A stretch of 13,635 nt of DNA from Candidatus Acetothermia bacterium (GTDB lineage: Bacteria > Bipolaricaulota > Bipolaricaulia > M55B111): the NCBI GenBank assembly GCA_046543235.1, contig JBKGZT010000036.1, forward strand, positions 1 through 13,635, read 5' to 3'. The notes beneath the pieces were generated by a model. The model was not told the DNA's origin. It saw nothing but the letters and a program-made list of their open reading frames with translations, and did not search any database. The position numbers and the translations under genes were made by a program. This document shows, in pieces, positions 1 through 13,564 of the stretch (positions are counted from its first letter, which is position 1; each line of letters opens with the position of its first letter).

Positions 1-23
1 AATTGCCACATGATGCGCTAGAA

Positions 24-52
24 AATATAGTGGTTTGGTGGGGGGATTTCAA
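24..52 (-). promoter_or_regulatory. Putative sigma70-type promoter reading off the left edge of the window
   Basis: Minus strand TTGAAA (52-47), 17 nt spacer, TATATT (29-24). The downstream gene lies outside the window. Confidence 0.5.
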
Positions 53-103
53 GAGGTAATTCTGGATGTAAACGGGGTTGACAGGGAAAACCGGGAGGGC
101 TGA

Positions 104-1078
104 TCAGCTCGAATCGGCGAACCTATCTCCTATCTTTAAATGGTAACCGTTTACGAAATCAACCCCGCTCATGGAGCACTTCGACGGGGGCTGTACCCGC
201 TTGAGCGCGAGGGCAGTAAAGTCTCCACACCTGACGATCAACCCGAGGCTACCCGTATCGATGACCTCTCCCGGCTCGGCGTTTCTTGACCTCCTGCCAA
301 GAGGAAGCCTGTCCAACAGCTCTCCGCTCAGCCTTCCGAGGTCCCGGGAACGGTACAGGCCTATGCGCTCCCCCTCGTAGTAAGAGTAGGCTCCCGGCCA
401 GGGATTCATGCCGCGGATCCGGTTGTGAAGATTCGAGGACTTCTGGCTCCAGTCAACAAGCCCGTCCTCCTTACTCAGCTTGGGAGCGAAGCTCGGCTCC
501 TCCTTTTGCTCACGCGGTTCCAGGGTTCCCGTTTCCAGCCCTTCCAGGGTCCTGAGAACGAGGTCACCCCCCATTTCGCTCAGGCGGTCGTGCACCTCCC
601 CCGCGGTCTCGTTCTCGCCGATCTTCGTCCTCTCTTTCATCAGTATGGGGCCAGTATCCAACCCCTCGTCCATTATAATCGTGGTGACTCCGGTTACTTC
701 CTCTCCCCGAATTACCGCCCAGTTTACGGGCGCGGCTCCTCGGTATTTGGGGAGCAACGACCCGTGGATATTCACCGGCCATTTGACCAAATCGAGGAAC
801 TCCCTCCCCACTTTCTGCCCATATGCCGCCAGTACGAATCCCTCGGGTTCTAAACCGCCGACCCTATCAAGGGATTCCTGGGAATTTACGTCTTCGGGCT
901 GGAAAAGGGGGATTTCTAACTCAAGCGCCTTTTCCTTGACCGAGGTATAACTGGCTTCCATTCCCCGCCCGCCAGCTCTATCCGGCTGGGTTATTACGAG
1001 CTCTAATTCGTGCTCCTCCGCTACGGACTCCAGTGAAGGTACGGCAAAATCGGCGGACCCGATAAATACTAGCTTCAC
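104..1078 (-). CDS. fmt: Methionyl-tRNA formyltransferase
   Basis: Motifs KLVFIGSADFAVPSL, VITQPDR, NIHGSLLPKYRGAAP, MDEGLDTGPI, IRGMNPWPGA. Start moved from 1099 to GTG at 1078, which follows a GGAGG Shine-Dalgarno and gives the canonical N-terminus. Confidence 0.97.
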   Translation of the reverse strand: MKLVFIGSADFAVPSLESVAEEHELELVITQPDRAGGRGMEASYTSVKEKALELEIPLFQPEDVNSQESLDRVGGLEPEGFVLAAYGQKVGREFLDLVKWPVNIHGSLLPKYRGAAPVNWAVIRGEEVTGVTTIIMDEGLDTGPILMKERTKIGENETAGEVHDRLSEMGGDLVLRTLEGLETGTLEPREQKEEPSFAPKLSKEDGLVDWSQKSSNLHNRIRGMNPWPGAYSYYEGERIGLYRSRDLGRLSGELLDRLPLGRRSRNAEPGEVIDTGSLGLIVRCGDFTALALKRVQPPSKCSMSGVDFVNGYHLKIGDRFADSS

Positions 1079-1183
1079 CCGAAACCTCCTCCCGGTCAAA
1101 TATTGAAATTAAAAATCGTCGGTAAAAGGCTGGAAACTCCGTCTCCAGAAATACTCTATAAAGTCAGCTCAAAGTCAACCCCG

Positions 1184-1212
1184 TTGCCCCGGCGTGATTT
1201 GAAGGTTATCAT
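1184..1212 (+). promoter_or_regulatory. Putative sigma70-type promoter for recG
   Basis: TTGCCC (1184-1189), 17 nt spacer, TATCAT (1207-1212), about 85 nt upstream of the recG ATG. Confidence 0.5.
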
Positions 1213-1297
1213 ATTTTAACCTCGAGTTAAACTCGATCTAAGTCGTCTGGTACGTGTTAACATTCTGCGCCCGACCGATAAATATCCAGGAGCCGGA

Positions 1298-3574
1298 ATG
1301 GATAAAAAACACAAAAGAAAACTAAAGAAAATCCTTAAACTGGAGAAAAAAACGGGATTCCAGAACGAAGCGGTACTAGGTGGATTGGAGAGCCTCTCCG
1401 ATAGTCTAATCCAAGATGCAAGGATCAGGGAGCTTCTCGACGGCTACGACGAAAAGAAACCCTTCAATCGCGGGGAAGTAGTCGAGGAGATAGAAAACTA
1501 CCTCGAATCAAGCGACACAAGCACCGCCGAGAGCGAGGTCAGCCTGGAAGATCCTATCAAAAACGCCGCGGGAGTGGGAGACAAGCGGGAAGAAAAATTC
1601 CTAGACCTGGGCGTGAGAACCATCCGCGATCTCTTCTTTTACTTCCCCCGAAGGATCGAGGACAGGAGGAAGGTAAAAAAAATTTCGGAAGTCAGCACCG
1701 GGGAAAGCTGTACCGTGCTCGGGAAGGTGGAGGGACTCTCCAAGCTCGAGCCCCGTCCCGGCGTCGAACTCGTCAAGGCGGCGATCAACGACGGAACTGG
1801 CACGGTTTACCCCGTCTGGTTCAACCAGCCTTGGATAAAAAACCAGCTGAGGCAGGAGGACGAAGTCGCGGTGTACGGCGAAGTCAAGAGGGAGTACGGC
1901 GAGAGGCAAATGGAGAACCCCACGTGGGAACCGGCGGAAGAGAAGAGCAAGACGAGAAAACTGGTCCCGGTATATCCTGCGACGGAGGATTTGAGTCAGA
2001 AGGTAATCCGCTGGATAATCCGGAAAAACCTGATCAAGTACATAGATGCAGTCCAGCAGTTTCCGTCATCGAAGACGGTTAAAGAACACGGCTTCATGGA
2101 AAGAAAGACCTCATTTAAGAGAATCCACGAGCCCCTGGAGACCGGCGACTTCGAGGAGGCCCGCCGGAGCCTTTCCTTTTCTGAACTTTTCCTCTTTTAC
2201 ACGGAGCTCCTGCAGGAATCGGAGGAAAAGAAAGTTGAGACGCCTCAGCTTTCCCGTTTAGGAGATCGACTCGAAGAATTTCGCGGGAAACTTTCCTTTG
2301 ATCTAACCGACGACCAGGAGCGGGCCCTGGGTGATCTGGCGGAGGATCTTAAATCTCCGGAACCGATGAACCGGCTTCTACAGGGCGACGTGGGAACAGG
2401 AAAAACCGTAGTGGCGGCCGCGGCCAGTTACATGGTAATCTCCTCCGGATATCAGGTAGGTATGATGGCACCGACAACCGTACTTGCGGAACAACACTAC
2501 CGAAACCTCGAAAACCTCTTCAGGGACCTATCCGCGGAGGTAGAACTACTTACCGGCGACCTCTCTAAGAAACGGCGGGAAAACGTCCTGAGCCGGCTCG
2601 AATCGGGAGAAATAGACCTACTCGTCGGAACTCACGCCCTCCTGGAGGAAACGGTAACTTTCTCAAGCCTGAATCTGGTCGTCATCGACGAGGAGCAACG
2701 GTTCGGAGTAGCCCAGAAGGAGAAGCTCGGATGGGGAAGCCGCACGGTAAACAAACTCGTCCTGAGCGCGACCCCGATTCCGAGAACCATTACGGCAACG
2801 GTTTACGGCGAGTACGAGGTCTCCAGGCTGGAAGAATTTCCTCACGGAGAAAAGGACGTCAGCACCTACTGGATCAGCAACTCGAAGAGAAATCAGGTCT
2901 ACGAGTACGTCAAAAAGGAGCTGAAAGGAGACAGCCAGGCCTTTATCGTCTTACCTCTGATCGAGGAATCCGACCAGCAGGAGGTAAAATCCGCCATAAA
3001 GACGAGGGAAGAGCTGGCGGAAAAGCAGCTCAAAGGATTCGAAATCGGTCTACTGCATGGTCGGATGAAGTCCGAAGAAAAGTCGGAAGTACTGAGGCGA
3101 TTCGAGAAAAGAGAGCTGGACGCCCTCGTCTCCACTACCGTAATCGAGGTCGGCGTCGATATCCCGAGCGCAAACATCCTGATCGTGGAGGAAGCGGATC
3201 AGTTCGGGTTGACCCAGCTTCACCAGCTACGAGGCAGGATCGGGAGGTCGGGCGACAAAGCGTACTGTTTTGCGATCGGTTCTCCTACGACCGAGGAAGG
3301 ACGAGAAAGGCTTGAAGCGTTCCGCGACATCTCCGACGGCTTCCAGCTGGTTGAGAAGGACCTGGAAATTAGGGGACCGGGCGATCTGTTGAGTTCGGCC
3401 CAGCACGGTTTCCACAACAGTTTTCGCGCCTGTAATTTCCTTAAAGACTACGATATAATGAAGGTTGCCAGGGACGAAGCCAGGAAACGGATTGAGTTAG
3501 AAGGCGAGAGTGGCCGCCTCAAGGATCTCTTCGAAAAATACTTCGGAAACCGGCTGGCGGAAGTCGAAAGTTAA
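1298..3574 (+). CDS. recG: ATP-dependent DNA helicase RecG
   Basis: Wedge/OB region (DLFFYFPRR, WFNQPWI, LVPVYPATE), RLLQGDVGTGKT, SATPIPRT, TTVIEVGVDIP, QLHQLRGRIGR and TRG motif DLEIRGPG. AGGAG SD before the ATG. Confidence 0.95.
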   Translation: MDKKHKRKLKKILKLEKKTGFQNEAVLGGLESLSDSLIQDARIRELLDGYDEKKPFNRGEVVEEIENYLESSDTSTAESEVSLEDPIKNAAGVGDKREEKFLDLGVRTIRDLFFYFPRRIEDRRKVKKISEVSTGESCTVLGKVEGLSKLEPRPGVELVKAAINDGTGTVYPVWFNQPWIKNQLRQEDEVAVYGEVKREYGERQMENPTWEPAEEKSKTRKLVPVYPATEDLSQKVIRWIIRKNLIKYIDAVQQFPSSKTVKEHGFMERKTSFKRIHEPLETGDFEEARRSLSFSELFLFYTELLQESEEKKVETPQLSRLGDRLEEFRGKLSFDLTDDQERALGDLAEDLKSPEPMNRLLQGDVGTGKTVVAAAASYMVISSGYQVGMMAPTTVLAEQHYRNLENLFRDLSAEVELLTGDLSKKRRENVLSRLESGEIDLLVGTHALLEETVTFSSLNLVVIDEEQRFGVAQKEKLGWGSRTVNKLVLSATPIPRTITATVYGEYEVSRLEEFPHGEKDVSTYWISNSKRNQVYEYVKKELKGDSQAFIVLPLIEESDQQEVKSAIKTREELAEKQLKGFEIGLLHGRMKSEEKSEVLRRFEKRELDALVSTTVIEVGVDIPSANILIVEEADQFGLTQLHQLRGRIGRSGDKAYCFAIGSPTTEEGRERLEAFRDISDGFQLVEKDLEIRGPGDLLSSAQHGFHNSFRACNFLKDYDIMKVARDEARKRIELEGESGRLKDLFEKYFGNRLAEVES

Positions 3575-3680
3575 TAGCAGGAAGCCTTAAACGTGCTGGA
3601 TTTTCGCCGGGGTGTCCGCTACTTTTATTTTGCTCAACCAGAACTACTATATTGGAGGTAATCGGTTAAAACCGAACGAG

Positions 3681-3971
3681 ATGATCGATAAAGAAACCGT
3701 AAAACACGTGGAAGATCTGGCAGAACTCAGTCTGACGGAGTCGGAACGGGAAGAGCTAACCGACGACCTGGCGGGGATTATCGATTACGTAAACAAACTC
3801 CAGGAACTGGACACGGATGAAGTAGAACCTCTAATGCATATCCTTGAAGTTGAAAACGTTCTGAGGAAGGACGAGAGGAAAACCAACCTGCCGGATGAAG
3901 AGGTCTTTAAAAATTCTCCCGCCAGAAAAGGTAATTTCTTCCAGGTTCCTCCGGTAATAGATCAGGACTGA
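3681..3971 (+). CDS. gatC: Asp/Glu-tRNA amidotransferase subunit C
   Basis: MIDKETVKHVEDLAEL, LQELDTDEVEP, NVLRKD and C-terminal FFQVPPVI match GatC. ATG 3681 gives the canonical N-terminus; exact start uncertain. Confidence 0.9.
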   Translation: MIDKETVKHVEDLAELSLTESEREELTDDLAGIIDYVNKLQELDTDEVEPLMHILEVENVLRKDERKTNLPDEEVFKNSPARKGNFFQVPPVIDQD

Positions 3972-3980
3972 AAAACCAAC

Positions 3981-4721
3981 CTAGCCCTGTCCGGGTGTGG
4001 GATAGACGAAAGTTCCTATTTCCTTTCCTCTCAGGATTTTAGCCGTGTTTCCTTTGGTGAAGAGATCGTAAACGACCATCGGAATTCCGGTCTCCCTGCA
4101 GATTCTGGCAGCGGTAAGATCTATGACCCCGAGTTCCTCATCCATCATCCTCTCGTAAGTAAGTTCGGTGATGAATTCCGCCTCCCCTCCACCTGCGGGA
4201 TCACCGGAATAAACTCCGTCTACGTCAGTTCCCTTTAAGATAAGATCAGCCCCTATCTCCCCCGCCCGCAGGGCGGCAGCACTATCCGTCGTAAAATACG
4301 GATTTCCGGTACCGCCGGCAAAAATGACGATACCGGAATCACCCAGGCGTTCGTCTGCCTGATCGGAATCAACTGGCTTGGCTATTCCATCCACGGGTAG
4401 AGCCGATTGAAGCTGCACCGCCAGGCCCCTATCCTCTAGGCTATCCTTGAGCACTATCCCGTTTACGATCGTAGCAACCATACCGGCAAAATCCCCGGCA
4501 GTTCGGCTGAGGAGGTCCTGGTCCGCGCCCCTAAGTACGTTGCCGCCCCCGACCACCAGGGCGAGCTCTATTCCCAGCTCAACAGCGCTTTCTACCTGGT
4601 CCGCGATGTAATCTATGGATTCCGCGTCGAGGGGGGTATCCCCACCAAAACCCGCGCCAGAGACCTTCAACAAGGCTCTGGAGGGTGTAAACCTGGTCGG
4701 GGGGTTGGATAATAAACTCAA
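3981..4721 (-). CDS. pyrH: Uridylate kinase
   Basis: LLKVSG, VVGGGN, FAGGTGNPYFTTDSAAALRA, KGTDVDGVYSGDP; lies downstream of rpsB-tsf. TTG start uncertain. Confidence 0.95.
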   Translation of the reverse strand: MSLLSNPPTRFTPSRALLKVSGAGFGGDTPLDAESIDYIADQVESAVELGIELALVVGGGNVLRGADQDLLSRTAGDFAGMVATIVNGIVLKDSLEDRGLAVQLQSALPVDGIAKPVDSDQADERLGDSGIVIFAGGTGNPYFTTDSAAALRAGEIGADLILKGTDVDGVYSGDPAGGGEAEFITELTYERMMDEELGVIDLTAARICRETGIPMVVYDLFTKGNTAKILRGKEIGTFVYPTPGQG

Positions 4722-4800
4722 TCTTACCGAGTTACCTCACTCTATGGTGAAACTGACGGTAAATTAAGCCGGATCGAAAACTACCGGGTTTTACGTGGGG

Positions 4801-5415
4801 TTAATTTTCCTCTTCTTCCTCTTCCGAGTCCGCCCCGACGTCGAACCGGGCAAACCTGGTTATCTCAATTTCCTCGTTGACCTTCGCCGAGAGCTCCCCC
4901 ATGATCTCTTCTATCGTCTTATCGGTCTCCTTGACGGACTCCTGTTCCAGCAAGCAGATTTCTCCGTAAAACTTGTCCAACTTCCCTTCCACGATATCCT
5001 CTATCACGTGATCCGGTTTTCCCTCTTCCTTGGCTTGCTTCCTGTAGACCTCCTCCTCTTCTTCAACTACTTCTTCCGGCACGTCCTCGCGGGATACGTA
5101 TTCTGGGGAAGCTGCGGCAACCTGGAGTGAGACGGTATCTACAAATTTTTGAAACTCGTCGCTATTAGCTGTAAAGTCAGTCTGACACTTAATTTCCACC
5201 AGAACTCCCACTTTACCGTCGTGGTGGATATAAGAGCCTACTCGGCCCTCGCCCGACTCCAGTTTTCCTTCGGACATCTCCATTCCCTGCTCCCTGAGCA
5301 TCTGTTTTGCTTCTTCCATGTCTCCATCCGTTTCCTGCAGGGCGCGCTTGCAGTCCATTATGCCAACGCCCGTCTCTTCTCTTAATTTCTTTACCTCTTC
5401 GGTAGTTATAGCCAT
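4801..5415 (-). CDS. tsf: Elongation factor Ts (short ~200 aa form)
   Basis: VKKLREETGVGIMDCKRAL, EGRVGSYIH, CQTDF, EICLLEQ, ITRFARF; AGGAGG SD; follows rpsB. Confidence 0.97.
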   Translation of the reverse strand: MAITTEEVKKLREETGVGIMDCKRALQETDGDMEEAKQMLREQGMEMSEGKLESGEGRVGSYIHHDGKVGVLVEIKCQTDFTANSDEFQKFVDTVSLQVAAASPEYVSREDVPEEVVEEEEEVYRKQAKEEGKPDHVIEDIVEGKLDKFYGEICLLEQESVKETDKTIEEIMGELSAKVNEEIEITRFARFDVGADSEEEEEEN

Positions 5416-5461
5416 TTAATATATCCTCCTAAACAAGGTGTGAAAATCGTGGAAAACGCTT

Positions 5462-6328
5462 CTAGGCTGAAGCTTCTTCGACTTCCGCTTCTTCTACTTC
5501 CTCGTCCTCGGCTTCTTCCTCGGCGACCTCAGCTTCCTTATCATCTTCTTCCGCTTCGACTTCGGGCTCCTCCGCTTCTTCGTCTTCCTCGGTTTCCGCT
5601 TCCGCTGCTTCTTCCTCGGCACCCTCTTCTTCAAGATTTCGATCGGCACCCTCTCTGCCTTCGATTACCGCATCGGCAAGCCGCGTGGTCAGCAGTCTCG
5701 TTGCCTTAATGGCGTCATCGTTCCCCGGAATAGGATAATCGATCAGATCGGGATCACAGTTCGTATCCGTGATGGCAATTACAGGAATGTCCAGGATTCC
5801 GGCCTCGTGCACGGCAATTTCTTCCGTCTCCGGATCTATTACGTAAACTATATCCGGGGGCTTCTCCATATCCCTGATACCGTCGTAGTTACGCCGCTTT
5901 TTCTTCAATTCTCGACGCAACTTCACTACTTCCTTATTGGGAAGTTGTTCGAAGGTCCCGTCTTCTTCCATCCGCTCCAGCTTTATCATCCTCTCGACGC
6001 TATCACGGATGGTATCAAAGTTGGTCAACGTTCCCCCGAGCCAGCGATGGTTCACGTAATGAGCACCACACCGCTTACCTTGCTTTTCCACTATATTCTG
6101 AACCTGGCGCTTGGTCCCGACGAAGAGAATTTCTGCTCCTCCCCTCACTTGATCCCGGACGAAATCGTAAGTCTTTTCGAACAGATCCTGCGTCGTCTCG
6201 AGATCGATTATGTGAATCCCTTTTCTCTCCATGAAAATGTAGTCTTCCATCTTGGGATTCCAGCGCTGAGTCCTATGTCCAAAATGGACACCCGATTCTA
6301 GAAGTTCCTTCATAGTTAAGAGTTCCAC
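5462..6328 (-). CDS. rpsB: 30S ribosomal protein S2 with long acidic C-terminal tail
   Basis: [49 protein letters not shown] start after AAGGAGG SD. Confidence 0.98.
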
Positions 6329-6388
6329 ATCTTTTCCTCCTTTATCGATGATCTCTCAAAATGCACTTCGATCTCTCGAAGGTAGGTG

Positions 6389-6418
6389 ATTATACAGGAA
6401 TATCGACTTCACCTTCAA
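6389..6418 (-). promoter_or_regulatory. Putative sigma70-type promoter for rpsB-tsf-pyrH
   Basis: Minus strand TTGAAG (6418-6413), 18 nt spacer, perfect TATAAT (6394-6389), about 60 nt upstream of rpsB. Confidence 0.6.
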
Positions 6419-6655
6419 GGCAGGCAGCTATAATTCCCTGTTCAAGTCCCGCTCGACCAGGGGTCCCGCAGCGAGACGATCCGCCAAACTCTCTCGGGAC
6501 GACAAAAACCAGGATCCCCTCGTGAATTATTCAAACTAGGGAGTTGGAAAGAGGGTCCAAGAACTTGGCTTCATCTCCTCTCCTCTACCGACAAGATCTG
6601 TTGGAAAGGCTAAAAGTTGTTCTCAAATGAGAAAATCGCACAACTTGGGTGAGTA

Positions 6656-6698
6656 GAAAAAGAAAATAGGCCTATTCGCCTTTAGGGCAAATAGGCCT
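6656..6698 (-). terminator. Intrinsic terminator after the arsR-glutaredoxin operon
   Basis: Minus-strand hairpin AGGCCTATT...AATAGGCCT (6698-6668, with inner GCC/GGC pairs) followed by ATTTTCTTTTTC, about 45 nt after the glutaredoxin stop. Confidence 0.75.
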
Positions 6699-6741
6699 GG
6701 AATGCGTATTCAAAAAAATCAAGAAGAAAAACAAACCAATG

Positions 6742-6984
6742 CTAGTTGACGTTTATCAGGGACTGCAGCTTTTCCTTGTTGAAGCCAACTACTATGTTAC
6801 CGTCGATATCTATAACTGGAGTACCCCGTTGACCGGATTTCTCGATCATCTCTTTTGCTTTTTGCCGGTTTTGAGAGACGTCGTAGTCAGTATATGTAAC
6901 GTTGTTTTCGTCCATCCAGTCCTTGGCGGCATTGCAGTATGGACATGAAGGAGTAGTATAAATAGTCACGTTATGGTCGTTCAT
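6742..6984 (-). CDS. Glutaredoxin-like protein (NrdH/YruB-like redoxin)
   Basis: 80 aa; VTIYTTPSCPYC active site, SGQRGTPVIDIDG cis-Pro region, VGFNK; AGGAGGT SD; ATGA overlap with the upstream arsR stop. Confidence 0.9.
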   Translation of the reverse strand: MNDHNVTIYTTPSCPYCNAAKDWMDENNVTYTDYDVSQNRQKAKEMIEKSGQRGTPVIDIDGNIVVGFNKEKLQSLINVN

Positions 6985-7292
6985 CCTAGGTCACCTCCTG
7001 AATTTTGTAGTAATACTTTGGGGTCGACACCCATGCTTTCCAGCAGATCGTAATTTATGTCGTAACAGTACTTGATGCCGTCCTTGTTCTTCTCGAGTAT
7101 TCCCGCGTGGGTCAGCTTGGATAGATGGTAAGATATATCCGGCTGGCTTAGTTCGAGCTCGCTTGATATTTCCTTCGCACATATGTTATCGTGTTCCAGC
7201 ACTAGCATAAGAATATTGAGGCGCTGAGAACTCGCAAGTGCTTTGAATACTGACTCCACGTCTTCCACTTCTAAAGCCCTATTATCTCTCAT
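6981..7292 (-). CDS. ArsR/SmtB family transcriptional regulator
   Basis: FKALASSQRLNIL, ICAKEI, LSQPDISYHLSKL..AGI winged-HTH pattern. Start placed at ATG 7292 because TTG 7307 is only 3 nt from the -10 box. Confidence 0.9.
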   Translation of the reverse strand: MRDNRALEVEDVESVFKALASSQRLNILMLVLEHDNICAKEISSELELSQPDISYHLSKLTHAGILEKNKDGIKYCYDINYDLLESMGVDPKVLLQNSGGDLG

Positions 7293-7310
7293 AAATATCT
7301 TCCTCAAGTG

Positions 7311-7355
7311 AGTATAACCTCTTCAAACACGTATGTCAATATTTAAAATTTTAAA
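7311..7355 (-). promoter_or_regulatory. Near-consensus sigma70 promoter of arsR-grx with adjacent AT palindrome (possible operator or UP element)
   Basis: Minus strand TTGACA (7339-7334), 17 nt spacer, TATACT (7316-7311); perfect palindrome TTTAAAATTTTAAA at 7342-7355. Confidence 0.75.
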
Positions 7356-7407
7356 AAGTTCAAAAGCAAGAACCCTTTTCCCTTCCGTCCTGAACTTCAA
7401 AACTAAA

Positions 7408-9486
7408 TCAGGAAGTTAACCTCATTCGTACGTCAGCTACGAGCGCCGTTTCAGTTGAAGCAAGGACGGGATTCAAATCCAGCTCTTCCACTTCCGGGAA
7501 ATCGATCGAAAACTTCGATACCCGTTGAACTATATCCACTATGGCCCCGATTTCAACCCCTTCGTTCCCCCTTACTCCTTCCAATATCGGGTAAGCATTT
7601 ATCGATTCCACCATTTCTCTGGCTTTTCTTTCGGATACCGGCGCCACGCCGTAGGAGACGTCCTCGAGAACTTCCACGTAGATACCGCCCAGGCCGAACA
7701 TGAGCAACGGTCCGAACTGGGGGTCGCGCTTCATCCCCACTATCACTTCTTCGCCCTCGGCGGCCTTTTGGATCCTTACTCCGTTGATCCGCGCATCCGG
7801 ATGGTTTTCCTTGATCTTCTCCGTCATTATTTGGAACTCGCTCCGGACGTCCTCCGGTTCAACCCCGACCTTTACCCCTCCGACGTCTGATTTATGAACT
7901 ATATCGGGCGAATCGATCTTCAGGACGACCGGGGCAGCAATCTCTTCGGCCAGGTCGACTGCCTCTTCCGGCGTACGAGCCAACCCGGCAGATAGAGTGG
8001 GTATCCCGTATTGTTCCAGCACCTCCAGCCCATCAAGCCCGACCACGTCACCGCTTTTTGCCTTTAATTCCCCCATTAGATCCCTGACTTCGTCAGCCTC
8101 GACGGAAAACTCGGTAGAGGTTCCAAGCTTCCTTTTCCGGACGTCCCCGTACCTGGCCAGGGCGGATAGAGCCCTCACCGCTCTGGCGGGGTCGAAATAG
8201 TTCGGGACGCCGGCCGACTCCAGCCTTTCCTTCGCTTTCGGCTCCAGCTGGCCACCCATCAGTGAACCGACAATCGGCTTATCGGTTCTTTCCCTGGCAT
8301 CGGCAAGGATGTCCGCCAGTTCCGGATATGAAAAGATAGCGGCCGGTGCCGACATGGCAAGTACCGACCCTACGTTATCGTCCTCGATCATGTATTCCAG
8401 GGCCTCCCGATAGTCGTCTTCGTCTGCCTTGCCGGTCAGGTCAATCGGGTTCTTTCGAGAAGCAAGGGACGAAAGTACCCCCTCCAGTTTCTCCAGAGTG
8501 GAGTCCTGGAGTTCGGCAAGCTCCAATCCGTAACCGCCCAGCGCGTCCGTGGCCATAACTCCCGGCCCACCGGCGTTGGTCAGTATACCTACTTTCTTGT
8601 TCTTCGGCGGCTTTTGATGGGCAAGGATCGAACCGAAATCAAACAGTTCCTCGATATCCTCAGCCCTAATAACTCCGCTTTGAGCAAAAGCAGCCTCGTA
8701 CGCATCGTCGCTCCCGGTCAGGGTGCCGGTATGGGAGGCAGCTGCGCTGGCACCTTCATCCGTTCTGCCGGATTTGACGACGACCATTGGCGTCTCCTCG
8801 GTAATTTCCTTCGCAACCTTCACGAACTCCTGACCCCTTTCTATTCCTTCCAAGTAAGCCAGAATTACGTCCGTGTCATCGTCCCTGTTCCATTCCTCGA
8901 TCAGGTCTATCTCGTCGAGCACGGCCTTGTTGCCGAGGGAAACGAAGTGGTTAAACCCCATGCCCGTTTCGTTCGCCCAGTCCAGGACGGCCGTACAGAA
9001 GGCACCGCTCTGACTCATGAAGGAAATATTCCCCGGCAGAGCCATCTCCTGGGCAAAGGTCGCATTCAAATTAGAACCGGTAGAGATGACGCCGATCGCG
9101 TTCGGTCCGATCACGTTCATCCCGTTTTCCCTGGCGACTTCGGCGAGTTCGCTTTCCAGCTTTGCCCCTTCTTCGCCGATTTCCTTGAACCCCCCGCTCA
9201 CCACTATGGCATTCCTTATATTCACTTCGGAACACTCCCGAAGGACGCCGGGAACCACCGGCGCCGGGACGGCGATAACGGCCAGGTCGACAGGACCCGG
9301 AACCTCGGCTATTCTATCGAAACATTCGAGGTCCTCCAGCCTGTCCGCCTTCGGGTTAACGGGATATACCTCCCCCTCGAAACTTTCGAGCAAGTTGGTA
9401 AGGACCTCCCTGCCCACCTCTCCTTTCTTCCTACTCGCACCGATTACCGCGACCGACGAAGGATGAAATAACTTCTCCAGACTCAC
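7408..9486 (-). CDS. Acetate/acyl-CoA ligase (ADP-forming), fused alpha+beta subunits
   Basis: N-terminal CoA-binding fold (SVAVIGAS, VYPVNP, IGPN), SQSGA, SLGNK, phospho-His motif AASHTG, TNAGGPGV, NPIDL, then an ATP-grasp domain (VLKIDSPDIVHKSDVGGV, DPQFGP, ELDLNP). No GNAT domain. GTG start with GGAGG SD. Confidence 0.92.
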   Translation of the reverse strand: MSLEKLFHPSSVAVIGASRKKGEVGREVLTNLLESFEGEVYPVNPKADRLEDLECFDRIAEVPGPVDLAVIAVPAPVVPGVLRECSEVNIRNAIVVSGGFKEIGEEGAKLESELAEVARENGMNVIGPNAIGVISTGSNLNATFAQEMALPGNISFMSQSGAFCTAVLDWANETGMGFNHFVSLGNKAVLDEIDLIEEWNRDDDTDVILAYLEGIERGQEFVKVAKEITEETPMVVVKSGRTDEGASAAASHTGTLTGSDDAYEAAFAQSGVIRAEDIEELFDFGSILAHQKPPKNKKVGILTNAGGPGVMATDALGGYGLELAELQDSTLEKLEGVLSSLASRKNPIDLTGKADEDDYREALEYMIEDDNVGSVLAMSAPAAIFSYPELADILADARERTDKPIVGSLMGGQLEPKAKERLESAGVPNYFDPARAVRALSALARYGDVRKRKLGTSTEFSVEADEVRDLMGELKAKSGDVVGLDGLEVLEQYGIPTLSAGLARTPEEAVDLAEEIAAPVVLKIDSPDIVHKSDVGGVKVGVEPEDVRSEFQIMTEKIKENHPDARINGVRIQKAAEGEEVIVGMKRDPQFGPLLMFGLGGIYVEVLEDVSYGVAPVSERKAREMVESINAYPILEGVRGNEGVEIGAIVDIVQRVSKFSIDFPEVEELDLNPVLASTETALVADVRMRLTS

Positions 9487-9519
9487 ATTACCCCTCCTTT
9501 AACCCCTCAATATGGGTTA

Positions 9520-9548
9520 ATTGTGGGAGAAAAGGAAGGATCTCTCAA
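9520..9548 (-). promoter_or_regulatory. Putative promoter for the acyl-CoA ligase
   Basis: Minus strand TTGAGA (9548-9543), 17 nt spacer, CACAAT (9525-9520); a 7-bp inverted repeat TTAACCC/GGGTTAA (9499-9520) lies between it and the SD. Confidence 0.4.
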
Positions 9549-9579
9549 CAAACCCCGATCCCCTCAGAACCCACTTACA

Positions 9580-9608
9580 TTGAAAAACCGGGCATGATTA
9601 CGTAACCT
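9580..9608 (+). promoter_or_regulatory. Putative sigma70-type promoter for prfA
   Basis: TTGAAA (9580-9585), 17 nt spacer, TAACCT (9603-9608), followed by GGAGG SD and ATG 9633. Confidence 0.55.
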
Positions 9609-9632
9609 GACTTGTCGGAGGAATGAATACCT

Positions 9633-10730
9633 ATGATAGACATCGTTAGCGAATTACCGGAGATCCGGGAGGAATACCAGAGGCTGGAAGAGAAAATGCA
9701 GAACCCGGACGTCATGGAAGGGAGCAAGTACCAGAAGGTCTCCCAGAAGTACTCGAGGGTCAAGAACGTCCTCCAGCTTACGGAAGACCTAAAAGAGACC
9801 TCACAGCGGATAGAAGAAAACGAGGAAATGCTTGAAACCGAAGAAGACGACGAGATGATCGCCCTGATCAAAGAAGAGCTCGAAGAGAACGAGCGGGAAA
9901 AATCACGCCTGCAGGAGGAGATCAAGGACCTCCTAATGCCCCAGCCAGAGGAAGACAAGAAGAACGCCATAGTCGAAATCAGGTCCGGGGCCGGGGGAGA
10001 CGAATCGGCACTCTTTGCTGCCGACCTGCTCAGGCTCTATCAGAGGTTCGCGGAGAGACAGGGATTCGAAGTAGAAACCCTGGAGAACAACCCGACCTCC
10101 ATCGGCGGCTTTACCCTCGTCTCCGTGGCGATAGAAGGAAAAAACGCCTACGGAAGATTCAAGTACGAAAGCGGTGTACACAGGGTTCAGCGCGTACCCG
10201 AGACGGAATCCTCCGGCAGAATTCATACCTCCACGGCCACGGTAGCGGTGTTACCCGAGGCGGAAGAAATCGACGTCGAGATAGACGAAAACGACGTTCG
10301 GGTAGATACCTTTCGTTCATCCGGCCCCGGAGGACAGCACGCCAACGTGACCGACTCGGCCGTCAGGTTGATCCACGAACCTACGGGTATAGAGGTTCAG
10401 TGTCAGGACGAAAGCTCCCAACACAAGAACAGGAAGAAGGCCTGGCGCGTACTGAGGTCCCGCTACAAGGAAAAGATAGAACAAAAGAGGGCGGAAAAAA
10501 GAGATAGCAAGCGGAGGGGGCAGATCGGTCAGGGACAGAGAAGCGAAAAAATAAGGACCTACAACTTTCCTCAGAACAGGTTAACCGATCACCGGATAAG
10601 CTACACGACTCACAACCTGGAAGCCATCATGGAAGGGGAAATAGACGAGTTAATAGGAAAGCTGGAGGAAGCGGAAAAGGAGGAGATGCTGGAAAACCAG
10701 GGCGTAGCCGAACTCCTCAGCGTAGACTGA
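9633..10730 (+). CDS. prfA: Peptide chain release factor 1
   Basis: [24 protein letters not shown] (RF1-specific PxT), [35 protein letters not shown]. Confidence 0.98.
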
Positions 10731-10786
10731 TATCGGTAACGGCCTGCCAAACTCCGGTTCTTCAGCCCCTACCAGCCGCCTCAACC

Positions 10787-10815
10787 TTGAAAAAGAAAAT
10801 CCCAAACAATAGAAT
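10787..10815 (+). promoter_or_regulatory. Sigma70-type promoter of tRNA-Ile
   Basis: TTGAAA (10787-10792), 17 nt spacer, TAGAAT (10810-10815), 10 nt before the mature tRNA 5' end. Confidence 0.75.
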
Positions 10816-10825
10816 AAGCAGGCAT

Positions 10826-10902
10826 GGGTCTATAGCTCAGTTGGTCAGAGCGCACGCCTGATAAGCGTGAGGTCCCTGGTTCGACTCCAGGTAGGCCCAC
10901 CA
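10826..10902 (+). tRNA. tRNA-Ile (anticodon GAU), CCA encoded
   Basis: Cloverleaf: acceptor GGGTCTA/TAGGCCC, D arm GCTC..GAGC, anticodon arm CACGC-CTGATAA-GCGTG, T arm CCTGG-TTCGACT-CCAGG, ACCA end; 77 nt. Confidence 0.98.
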
Positions 10903-10908
10903 CCTCTC

Positions 10909-11340
10909 TCAACTCCCGTTTTCCCCTTCGAAGTAACTGATCAGGTCATCCAGCGTGAAGGACTCGAGTACCTCGGTAAACTTCTCGTAAATTACCTCCC
11001 AGACTTCCAGGGTGGGGCAGTTGCTTTCGAGCGGGCAGGGTTTACCTTCGTCGGGCAGGAGGCAGTTCACTGGGGCCAGACTACCGTCTTCCAGGACGGA
11101 AATCACCCTCTTTATGGAAACCTCTTCCGGGTCGTTTGAGAGTTCGTATCCCCCTCCTCGGCCCCGCTTGACCTCGACCAGTTCGGCGTCCTTGAGTTCC
11201 CTCATTATCTTTTCGAGAAAGGGCTGTGGGAGGTCGTACTTCTCGGCAATTTCCTTGGTAGAGAGGTAAGTAGTATCGTACTTCTGCGCCAGCTCGGCCA
11301 TCGCGACCAGCCCGTAGCCGCTCTTTTTTGTAACTCTCAT
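10909..11340 (-). CDS. Rrf2 family transcriptional regulator with three Cys (probable Fe-S binding, IscR-like)
   Basis: MRVTKKSGYGL, FLEKIM..LK.AELV...RGRGGGYEL, VLEDG, C-x8-C-x5-C, FTLDDL; AAGGAGG SD; directly downstream of cysE. Confidence 0.92.
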   Translation of the reverse strand: MRVTKKSGYGLVAMAELAQKYDTTYLSTKEIAEKYDLPQPFLEKIMRELKDAELVEVKRGRGGGYELSNDPEEVSIKRVISVLEDGSLAPVNCLLPDEGKPCPLESNCPTLEVWEVIYEKFTEVLESFTLDDLISYFEGENGS

Positions 11341-11386
11341 ATCCTTCCTCCTTTAAATTACCGCATATTCGTCGGGCTGAACCGAG

Positions 11387-12085
11387 CTAGACGCCGACGT
11401 TCGTGTGATCCAGGTCACCCTCGTCCTTCTGGGAACCCAGGCGGTCCTCCAGCTCTTCAACGGTGGCCTCGAGTTCGAGCTGGCGTTTTAACATGTAATC
11501 AAAAGCATCGCCAAGGGGGTTCGGTATATCCCCGTGATCCAGCTCGAAATCCGGCTGGGGCCTACGCCCTTCCTTGGAAACCTGAGCCGGAACTCCGACG
11601 GCCGTAGTAGTCGGAGGCACGGATTTGGTAACTACCGAGCCCGCACCAACACGAGCACCTTCTCCGATCGTAATCGGTCCAAGCAGAATCCCTCCTGCTC
11701 CGACCTCGACGTTGTTCTCCAGGGTCGGGTGGCGCTTCCCGGATTCCTTGCTCGTCCCTCCGAGAACTACGCCCTGATAAAGCAGGACGTCGTCGCCTAT
11801 TTCTGCCGTCTCCCCGATCACTACACCGCTACCGTGATCTATGAAGACGCCGCTCCCGATTTCCGCTCCCGGATGTATTTCCACGCCGGTCAGAAGTCGG
11901 CTCAAGTGCGAAACCAGTCGCCCAACTAATTTGAGGTGGTGACGCCAGAGAAAGTTGGCAACCCTGTGCATCCACAGAGCGTGAAGTCCAGGATAGCAGC
12001 ACAGTACCTCGGCCAGGTTCCTGGCGGCAGGATCCCTTTCGAACACTGCCTCGACATCCTTACGAAGGCGTTCAAACAGTTTCAT
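11387..12085 (-). CDS. cysE: Serine O-acetyltransferase
   Basis: [57 protein letters not shown]. Start moved from 12250 to ATG 12085, which has an SD and gives the canonical N-terminus. Confidence 0.96.
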
Positions 12086-12194
12086 GAAACCTCTGCTCCT
12101 CTCCCGTATATAAAATTTATCCACAACTCCTGCGGCGTCCCGTTTATTAACTAATAACCGAACTTCAACGTTCAAAAAAATCCAATCCAAGACC

Positions 12195-12223
12195 ATGGTA
12201 GACGGCAGCCCGCTATTTTTCAA
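12195..12223 (-). promoter_or_regulatory. Putative sigma70-type promoter for cysE-rrf2
   Basis: Minus strand TTGAAA (12223-12218), 17 nt spacer, TACCAT (12200-12195). A second candidate, TTGGGT-16-TATAAT, lies at 12353-12326. Confidence 0.55.
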
Positions 12224-12358
12224 GAGTAATTTGGTCCAGTTTTTCGCCATTTGCCAGAAGGAACCACCTGGTTTAATTCACATAACGGGTGGGATAAAGA
12301 TACTTTTGCCCCCTTGTTCGCTGGTATTATAGAAAATAAGTAAAAATACCCAAATTAG

Positions 12359-12485
12359 GCCCTACCCAAGGTAGGGCGAAGTACACGGAAGCCAATAAAA
12401 TAGAACTGAAAGCATGCTGTTCTATCGGATGGTAGGGGGTTATAGGAAGACAAATACCTACAAGGAGTCTTTTGCATCGCCCTAC
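12359..12485. repeat. Cluster of GTAGGG/CCCTAC inverted repeats (REP-like)
   Basis: Hairpin GCCCTACC-CAA-GGTAGGGC (12359-12377), GGTAGGG (12431-12437), and CGCCCTAC (12478-12485) complementary to GTAGGGCG (12371-12378). Confidence 0.45.
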
Positions 12486-12653
12486 TACAGGGAAATATAA
12501 GAGTTAAAAATTTACGATCTGTAGCAAATGTTAAAAGTTTACATTATTTCTACATAAAAGGAGAAGACTCGGGTGTAGTTCCTAGCTGACTTGGTTTACC
12601 TTTCGTCTCTTAACCCTTTGGGAAAGAATGATGGCATAGAAATTTCCGTCTTC

Positions 12654-13157
12654 TCAAATTGCAAGTGTAACGCTTCCCGAAGTCCCGTCATACACCAAAA
12701 GACAGTGCCGGAGAATATCCCGCCCAATTAAAGCAGAGATATTTTGTCTCTTGAGATCGCTACCGAGAACATTTAAGGAGGTCATATCCGGCAGCCCCTT
12801 GCCTGGAAAAGAGAATTTCACCGCATATAATTCCTGGGTAGCCTGACCGGAAGGAGTGCTCACCTTAGTTGCACCAATGGGAGAAATATTTAGCTTTTGT
12901 AACAAATCTAGGTCGATAGCTGAAATTGAGGCACCGGTATCGATCAAACCCTTGCTTGATTGAGGTGAGGGTATCTCCTTATCGTTGTCTTCAAGTATCT
13001 TGGCGTGTTGGTCGGTAATATGTACCTCGACGTCCATAGTGGAGCCATCTTTAGCTAAAGCGTCGGGATCCGGCTCTACCACTACCTGATCGGGTTGGTC
13101 CTCTTTTTTCGTGCCGGGGAAGCCTATGTTGACCCTAAAATCACTATTTACCGGCAT
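12654..13157 (-). CDS. Retropepsin-like (clan AA) aspartic protease
   Basis: Catalytic LIDTGAS (DTGA at 12941-12930), flap-like VSTPSG and ALIGRDIL (GRD at 12725-12717). Single-domain, so presumably a homodimer; no signal peptide or TM segment visible. Confidence 0.88.
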   Translation of the reverse strand: MPVNSDFRVNIGFPGTKKEDQPDQVVVEPDPDALAKDGSTMDVEVHITDQHAKILEDNDKEIPSPQSSKGLIDTGASISAIDLDLLQKLNISPIGATKVSTPSGQATQELYAVKFSFPGKGLPDMTSLNVLGSDLKRQNISALIGRDILRHCLLVYDGTSGSVTLAI

Positions 13158-13425
13158 GTATTATCCCAAGCTCTAAGGCAGGTAGATGATCAACTTGCTC
13201 TTCTTTGGATACCCGTTGAACGAGAAACGGCTGTAGGCCAAATTTGTTCAGTCCTTCCTCGTAAGCTTTCTGTTGAGAATCGTAAGGGCCAAGGACGGCA
13301 TCCCCCTGGATTGCTATGAACTTACCCTCACCGTATTCGTCCACCCAGTCCTCCTTTTTTGACTCATAAAGCTCTATTTCGTTTCTCAATGTTAGTTCCT
13401 CGCTTTCCTCGACCATTTTTATCAC
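13144..13425 (-). CDS. Small acidic hypothetical protein, DUF5678-like
   Basis: 93 aa; pattern YGEGKFIAIQGDAVLGPYDSQQKAYEEG...PFLVQRV resembles DUF5678 proteins (recognised by eye). GAGGT SD before the GTG; overlaps the protease gene by 14 nt. Confidence 0.7.
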   Translation of the reverse strand: MIKMVEESEELTLRNEIELYESKKEDWVDEYGEGKFIAIQGDAVLGPYDSQQKAYEEGLNKFGLQPFLVQRVSKEEQVDHLPALELGIIHAGK

Positions 13426-13441
13426 CTACTACCTCTAATAC

Positions 13442-13470
13442 ATTTTAAGAAAAAGCGGACTAGATTTCAC
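13442..13470 (-). promoter_or_regulatory. Putative promoter of the DUF5678-like/protease module
   Basis: Minus strand GTGAAA (13470-13465), 17 nt spacer, TAAAAT (13447-13442), immediately upstream of the SD. Confidence 0.5.
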
Positions 13471-13564
13471 TTTTGAACTCCTACCACGACTTATTCTTGT
13501 TCCGCCGAATATGCTGATCTGCTGCCACCCCGGCCTGCCCGACGTGTTTATGTCGGTATTAGAT

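Follow-up and report, generated by a model that had tools for sequence, protein, structure and literature searches.

Two overlapping genes near one end of a 13,635-nucleotide contig, a small gene encoding an acidic protein and a gene encoding a retropepsin-like aspartic protease, raise the question of whether they form a functional unit and what the small protein (hereafter, the partner) does to the enzyme. The window analyzed here is that entire contig, C34 of genome G000 (Candidatus Acetothermia bacterium). An earlier note on this DNA had described the two genes as a recombinase-linked module and had proposed a toxin-antitoxin (TA), anti-phage or signalling system in which the small protein is an inhibitor, a dimerisation switch or a substrate. 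The pair is real, widespread, mobile and apparently undescribed, and we propose that the partner might serve as a cognate inhibitor of the protease.

Results

Gene organization

Both open reading frames of the earlier note were recovered (the smaller at 13144-13425 on the minus strand when its 93 residues are counted from GTG), as were the intact motifs of the protease (Table 1) and a base composition richer in AT than that of the core genes (GC of 0.45-0.47 versus 0.525 over window positions 1-12250 and 0.527 over the genome). GC at third codon positions was 0.47 in the pair versus 0.55-0.69 in nine core genes. ATG 13416 is more likely than GTG 13425 to be the start of the small gene, because AGGTGA lies 5 nt upstream of it, the database record has 90 residues, and one base is missing between GTG and ATG in a relative; partner residues in the interface and tail are numbered from this ATG. 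The candidate promoter that had been assigned to the operon is weak alone, since the search returned five promoter-like sites compared with 2.1 ± 1.6 in shuffled sequences, but its -10 element and the Shine-Dalgarno-like sequence are retained in a related locus, L011. A search for an operator found no inverted repeat of 12 nt or longer at the promoter.

Contigs from three sequencing runs span the pair unbroken with 1-5 differences, and the pair is therefore no assembly artefact. The runs containing 88-97% of the stretch's words are metagenomes of hypersaline lake and mat samples from a single study, possibly the source of the stretch, and the nearest named relatives of both proteins belong to Candidatus Bipolaricaulia. 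Elsewhere in the window, a tRNA-Ile(GAT) gene (10826-10902, plus strand) lies between prfA and the rrf2-cysE operon, and cysE (11387-12085, minus strand) probably starts near 12085, compared with a longest-ORF start at 12250, because its Pfam matches begin at residue 57 and the genes of congeners begin there.

Table 1 Features of the protease-partner locus in the window
Feature	Position	Strand	Remarks
Small acidic partner protein	13144..13416	-	90 aa from ATG 13416; 93 aa from GTG 13425
Retropepsin-like clan AA aspartic protease	12654..13157	-	167 aa; PF13650, model and fold matches
Catalytic D-T-G-A motif (Asp73; residues 73-76)	12930..12941	-	
I-G-R-D motif (residues 144-147; hydrophobic-hydrophobic-Gly of psi-loop)	12717..12728	-	
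Partner/protease overlap, 14 nt	13144..13157	-	
Shine-Dalgarno-like AGGTGA before ATG 13416	13422..13427	-	Sequence; kept in L011
Candidate sigma-70 promoter, GTGAAA-17-TAAAAT	13442..13470	-	Score 9/12; -10 kept in L011
Relic of a second, type B tyrosine recombinase (its final ~23 codons)	13481..13552	-	
Final 22 codons of type A tyrosine recombinase (multi-copy), truncated at contig end	13565..13633	-	
AT-rich spacer (about 40% GC), left insertion edge	12275..12653	.	Similarity to DNA upstream of cysE in congeners stops at 12274

A retropepsin-like protease

The protease passes PF13650 (26.9 bits; cut-off 24.3), and the best of the 30 PDB matches of its structural model (pLDDT 94; matches at E ≤ 0.001) are to retroviral proteases (HTLV/FIV), DDI1 and APRc. 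A profile of 72 relatives matched HTLV-1 protease with an E value of 1.3e-7, and DDI1 as well. Two other clan AA families fell short: TIGR03698 was matched with 13 bits against a cut-off of 57.35, and TIGR02281 gave no match at E ≤ 1. The two motifs by which PMC11313796 defines such enzymes, D-T-G and a downstream hydrophobic-hydrophobic-Gly, are present within LIDTGA (71-76) and LIGRD (143-147). D-T-G is invariant in all 39 rows of the alignment built from a homologue search (A2), while the invariance of D-T-G-A in 72 of 72 rows of the locus-derived alignment (A6) arises by selection, since the pattern that found the loci held the motif and rows were filtered for D-T/S-G. In the 72 rows, G145 is kept in 70 and D147 in 69.

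Enzymes of this clan are active as homodimers according to PMC11313796 and PMC11957791. The protease has no hydrophobic segment (the highest 19-residue hydropathy is 0.85) and is probably cytoplasmic. A helix at residues 49-57, inserted before the catalytic strand, is typical of its subfamily. The extended N-terminus containing Pro and Asp, to which the earlier note had drawn attention, corresponds to a loop near residues 13-30; it turned out to be a lineage-specific insertion confined to the closest relatives. One paired protease (L012:1330-1914) carries a C-terminal Cys motif, which in our estimation resembles SEC-C.

Conservation of the gene pair

We kept 80 loci, two of them near-identical copies, from 123 relatives in genome contigs and searched them with a partner profile that was built, independently of these loci, from the matches of a partner search. 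The two genes do co-occur in other genomes, as had been expected of a genuine module: the partner lies directly upstream of the protease in 77 of the 80 loci, as it does in three of four viral loci. The loci span Nitrospirota, Acidobacteriota, Planctomycetota, Chloroflexota, Cyanobacteria, archaea and others. The partner is missing at three loci, two of which are at contig ends: the protease is truncated at its 5' end in both L043 and L052, and in L091 it has an internal stop, with 40 bases of DNA upstream. Among 184 genomes of the window's own phylum, 18 gave a protease match, 15 of them along with a partner (weak in three), and the pair is patchy within the genus (2 of 15 genomes). A reverse check of 20 partner places in the phylum found a D-T/S-G protease downstream of the partner in 14, a D-M-G look-alike ORF in three, a contig edge in one and neither in two; the look-alike ORFs gave no Pfam match where tested. 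Distant pairs in which D-M-G replaces D-T/S-G are L120:1717-2124, L123:1039-1446 and L121:1232-1665, the last a frameshifted copy between two HicAB modules.

Among the 77 pairs with an assigned start (of 85 given), the two genes share exactly 14 nt in 37, and 35 of these 37 carry Ala at position -3 of the partner, a near-terminal codon that is forced by the Met-Pro start of the protease within the overlap. We considered whether the overlap or a Shine-Dalgarno sequence incidentally conserves the tail, which holds for this near-terminal Ala only; Gly at -7 is encoded by each of its four codons (GGG 12, GGA 9, GGT 8 and GGC 6 of 37), and P-A-L is kept at the protein level. A frameshift fusion of the gag-pro type was rejected, as a stop codon lies two codons before the protease ATG in the protease frame of the window and 23 of the 37 pairs with a 14-nt overlap have a stop within five codons.

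Both genes are under purifying selection, with pN below pS in all 40 pairs of 60-99% identity (window versus L019, pN 0.17 and a saturated pS of 0.84-0.90; L037 versus L038, pN 0.011-0.014 and pS 0.11-0.14). Distances in the two protein alignments are correlated (r = 0.76), which we do not count as evidence of binding because co-inheritance alone would produce it. No third conserved gene was found among 139 neighbors at 75 loci called with our own heuristic; dnaN and mscL recur beside the pair in one clade only. This acidobacterial clade (L087, L089, L090 and L097) has short-tailed partners encoded between mscL and dnaN.

The partner protein

The earlier note had called the partner DUF5678-like, a likeness that its own sequence does not reveal (no Pfam match at E ≤ 1, and thus below the DUF5678 (PF18929) gathering cut-off of 23.2) and that holds through its relatives. 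A profile of nine close partner sequences retrieved 1,399 clusters at 50% identity (E ≤ 0.001); when 140 of the 150 listed matches of the partner profile were scanned, 56 matched DUF5678 at E ≤ 0.05 and 16 scored above the cut-off. On these scores the partner is a distant relative of DUF5678 and not a member. A cluster in the Atlas with 10% DUF5678 members is among the nearest to the partner by features and structure; NCBIfam gave neither a match to the partner itself nor a consistent family for it.

The partner is acidic (20 D/E versus 9 K/R), and its model alone has a helix-strand-strand-helix-strand core (pLDDT 77) and a flexible tail (below 50 at 74-84). Structure comparison returned no solved fold, with a best Z of 4.1 among 48,161 chains and nothing from Foldseek at E ≤ 0.001, which does not show that the fold is new; HicB-like and RNase H1 N-terminal-like folds were unsupported by the comparison. 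Pfam and fold searches yielded no HTH or RHH match and no DNA-binding domain in the partner, and one relative gave a weak N-terminal RHH_5 match (E 0.022). Conserved positions are E13, G43, A51, L65 and P79. The segment 73-78 (acidic-x-Val/Ile-x-x-hydrophobic) is ungapped in all 72 partners, about two thirds of which have a PALxLG tail extension, and tails vary between subfamilies. At least seven tandem double partner proteins occur among the matches listed. In two fusions, P0090 and P0128, two DUF5678 domains are joined to a retropepsin, a Pro-rich linker and a hydrophobic C-terminus; these membrane-anchored fusions suit a pro-domain equally as well as an antitoxin. P0044 has a protease and a tail like those of P0090 and P0128 without the DUF5678 domains.

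Predicted complex

An interaction between the two proteins, which the earlier note had anticipated, is predicted by a 2:2 model (two copies of the protease and two of the partner, each chain given 72 alignment rows in matching order) that scored 0.75, compared with 0.11 for the best of three controls. Three 2:2 runs scored 0.74-0.77, with contact agreement of at least 68% and partner pLDDT of at least 77. In calibration, 116 of 157 solved complexes attained the score mark, as did 2 of 215 mismatched pairs; these rates apply roughly to our own alignments and a 2:2 job, in which the score refers to the partner and not to the protease dimer itself. On the protease side the predicted interface comprises residues 50-55, Asp73, 75-78, 92-100 (the flap), 105-112, 128-131, 143 and 145, and on the partner side 8-14, 48-56, 60-67 and 73-81; the tightest predicted pairs join partner 63-67 with flap 92-96, and Tyr52 with residues 112 and 128.

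The suggestion that the tail LPALELGII occupies the active site survives in part: residues 73-81, through LPAL, touch the protease, but ELGII is not in the interface and about a third of partners lack PALxLG. Taking the two residue lists together, we infer that segment 73-81 may lie in the substrate cleft, a placement that protease-peptide structures could have biased; no tail-to-catalytic-residue pair is among the 25 best predicted pairs. The model supports binding without proving it, and a substrate bound in place of an inhibitor would give the same picture. Inter-chain covariation gave no clear signal (10% of the top 50 pairs in the interface against a background of 6.8%, with about 54 effective sequences), and interface residues were not significantly more conserved (p 0.06-0.6).

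Recombinases and mobility

A recombinase does end 140 nt from the pair as the earlier note described, with only its last 22 codons inside the window, and the intervening 140 nt hold the relic of a second one. This type B relic and the C-terminal end of the L011 recombinase, a PF00589 protein, are 61% identical over 23 residues (E 5e-4); the type B recombinase directly precedes a frameshifted pair in L011 and likewise in second copies from two runs. The type A recombinase is multi-copy, with a depth of 148-846 versus about 24-56 over the pair in the runs examined, and congeners encode Phage_integrase proteins of ~200 aa that share its last 18 residues. The terminal sequence was seen in five further genomes of the genus; at the four of these places that were fetched no pair is near, the full recombinase is present in three, and a BrnT-like/CopG TA pair follows in one of those three, L139, in the same slot behind the same recombinase. 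L137-L139 show this stand-alone ~200-aa tyrosine recombinase as multi-copy in the genus with varied cargo (a PIN gene, a BrnT-like/CopG pair). As a family trait, the proposed recombinase linkage did not hold up: none of the 139 nearest neighbors is a Phage_integrase, the same recombinase carries other cargo in congeners, and recombinase pieces were found by tblastn with two queries in the flanks of L037 and L039 only, among the 80 loci. The recombinase link is local, not a family property.

The placement of the pair on mobile DNA, in turn, gained support. At 10 of the 11 loci from congeners mutM is the next gene beyond cysE, the eleventh ending inside cysE, and congeners lack the pair at the cysE-mutM site. 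Because mutM adjoins cysE in congeners and the likeness to them ends at 12274 in genome G000, where mutM opens contig C80, the pair is part of an insertion, a cassette evidently placed between cysE and mutM. In L019, whose protease is 71% identical, the pair stands alone in a 1.4-kb cassette (L019:25-1536) between two complete 81-bp direct copies of tRNA-Arg(CCG), with no integrase inside. Adjacency to a tRNA was seen in few of 60 loci only, the window holds no convincing att-like repeats, and one query (the L022 protease) found no match in 72,556 plasmids and 50,697 phages. Nine of the 139 neighbors are transposases, and most are housekeeping genes.

Decay of the pair

The protease carries a stop or frameshift beside an intact partner in 9 of the 80 loci (L037, L045, L047, L054, L061, L062, L068, L077 and L081), and the same protease-only decay is seen in L010 of the phylum set; the converse, a broken partner with an intact protease, was found in none of the 80. 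Both genes are broken in L011. Excluded from this count were L025 (unusual start) and L055 (contig end), and 11 partner break flags were read as the profile running past the true stop codon of partners with short tails. If gene length alone decided where breaks fall, all nine landing in the protease would have a p of about 0.02, in a post hoc test that treats loci as independent and draws on draft genomes in which frameshifts may be errors. Since the search was seeded on the protease, lone proteases would have shown up. The one-sided decay fits an inhibitor or antitoxin.

Possible links to defence systems

A defence identity of the PADLOC type was not borne out: two stray matches occurred among 72 partners, and 8 of 72 proteases matched PDC-M08B weakly (family best E 5e-6, at fold level). 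PADLOC matched 11 of the 139 neighbors, of which about five are credible and six are housekeeping look-alikes, a raw count. Other observations hint at a link between the family and defence. P0202 and P0203 are protease-TIR and TIR-protease fusions, a CAP12-type TIR gene (L095:8451-9578) follows a pair by 10 nt, and restriction-modification genes lie beside L021 and L039. In Sulfolobales, aspartic proteases adjoin type III CRISPR modules, according to PMC3973734. L086:7980-8480 and L094:648-1148 keep the linker of P0202 without the TIR domain. We found no description of PDC-M08 in the literature accessible to us, and M08 is absent from the main text of 10.1101/2024.01.29.577857.

Discussion

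Mechanism and competing explanations

We propose that the partner is a cognate inhibitor or antitoxin that keeps a cytoplasmic aspartic protease shut, in a cassette akin to type II TA systems, and we judge this proposal to be about equally likely to be right or wrong. It is the simplest account of the coupled, partner-first operon, the predicted clamp on flap and catalytic residues, the one-sided decay, the patchy spread and the TA-like cargo slots. The two genes would be translationally coupled with the partner made first, and the protease would dimerise to form one Asp73/Asp73' site. Two partners would bind the dimer, the last core strand (63-67) docking on the first flap strand (92-96), Leu10 and Tyr52 of the partner helices packing against the helix insertion of the family and the strands close to it, and segment 73-81 blocking the substrate cleft. 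Stress or infection might then cause the partner to be lost, degraded or displaced, and the freed protease might cut a host target. A bolder and more tentative version, possible though doubtful, is that of a widespread TA or abortive-infection family in which the toxin is a retropepsin, an HIV-protease-like dimer whose flaps are locked and whose cleft is filled by a DUF5678-like antitoxin, with the antitoxin domain reused as a fused pro-domain and TIR fusions coupling release to an immune effector.

Alternatively, the partner would be an obligate activator or adaptor that stabilises the dimer and flaps or selects substrates, so that the complex would be the enzymatically active form in a small pathway for stress or signalling. 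The best-defined predicted contacts run from core to flap rather than from tail to catalytic residues, natural partner-protease fusions exist, and the activation of characterised bacterial A2 peptidases involves other proteins (PMC11957791), yet catalytic-site residues fall within the predicted interface, and loci with a broken partner would be expected, because an orphaned inactive protease would be harmless, whereas there are none among the 80. We regard an activator as unlikely. Quite unlikely is a dedicated substrate, whose core would act as an exosite and whose cut tail would switch an effector or signal. The tail is flexible in the partner alone and ordered at the cleft side in the complex model, and it keeps a hydrophobic residue followed by Pro at 78-79, presumably resembling a retropepsin cleavage site; nevertheless, the conserved residues of the partner form no effector domain or active-site-like set, tails differ between subfamilies, and a substrate role alone leaves the one-sided decay unexplained.

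An anti-phage function by abortive infection, with the partner as a sensor displaced by a phage protein, lies on a separate axis and is compatible with an inhibitor. The TIR fusions and the TIR gene at L095, the weak PDC-M08B matches, the restriction-modification genes and the CRISPR-side proteases (PMC3973734) lean toward it, but the partner has no consistent PADLOC match, the PDC-M08B likeness is at fold level, and few neighbors are credible defence genes, so that we consider this function rather unlikely. That the genes are chance neighbors on a decaying mobile element, as the pile of recombinase relics at the site might suggest, is refuted by their co-occurrence across phyla, and the conserved overlap, selection, fusions and predicted complex also speak against it; we assign this reading next to no probability.

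Should the partner prove to be an inhibitor, that role would give a name to a large family (the 1,399 clusters come from one profile) with no assigned role or solved fold, an aspartic protease would join the enzymes of toxins and defence, and the partner would offer a protein scaffold of natural origin for blocking the active site of a retropepsin. Exact residues to mutate can be read from the predicted interface, which makes the question directly testable.

Comparison with known systems

No description of the protease-partner pair emerged from a literature search, mostly of open-access text, in which PMC7159879 was also searched by term without a match. For DUF5678 the search gave one paper, on a plant pathogen. 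The Pfam model of DUF5678 covers 49 positions, corresponding to the core of the partner without the start of the N-terminal helix or the tail. To our knowledge no TA toxin is a retropepsin, and we know of no protein inhibitor family of such a kind. The protease shares its fold, its motifs and one catalytic Asp per chain with retropepsins and single-domain clan AA enzymes (HTLV-1, FIV and HIV proteases, DDI1 and Rickettsia APRc; PDB 2b7f, 1fiv, 3s8i and 5c9f), from which it differs in being 15-24% identical, in the inserted helix 49-57, which lies in the predicted partner site, and in its dedicated upstream partner gene. It lacks a membrane anchor, whereas APRc is membrane-embedded according to PMC4140852. 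RimB of the Pseudomonas RimABK system and RloA of rlo operons (9g59; PMC11957791 and PMC12239564) are likewise retropepsin-like enzymes with co-encoded partners, but they act with ATP-grasp ligases and polyglutamate, and none of these was found among the 139 nearest neighbors here. The window's protease is a weak match to the B subunit of PADLOC's PDC-M08 (E 7e-4). Its partner matches none of the PDC-M08 models, and none of 72 partners matched the A subunit.

Type II TA systems are usually, though not universally, autoregulated through a DNA-binding domain of the antitoxin and an operator. The pair differs from them in having an aspartic protease as its enzyme; neither a DNA-binding domain nor an operator was found, plasmids were negative with one query, and its membership in the TA class is putative. 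It nevertheless appears to work most like a type II TA or a protease-inhibitor cassette, sharing with BrnT/CopG, HicAB and ParDE a small overlapping bicistron with the small gene first, a patchy and mobile distribution, a predicted direct complex and the loss of the enzyme before its partner.
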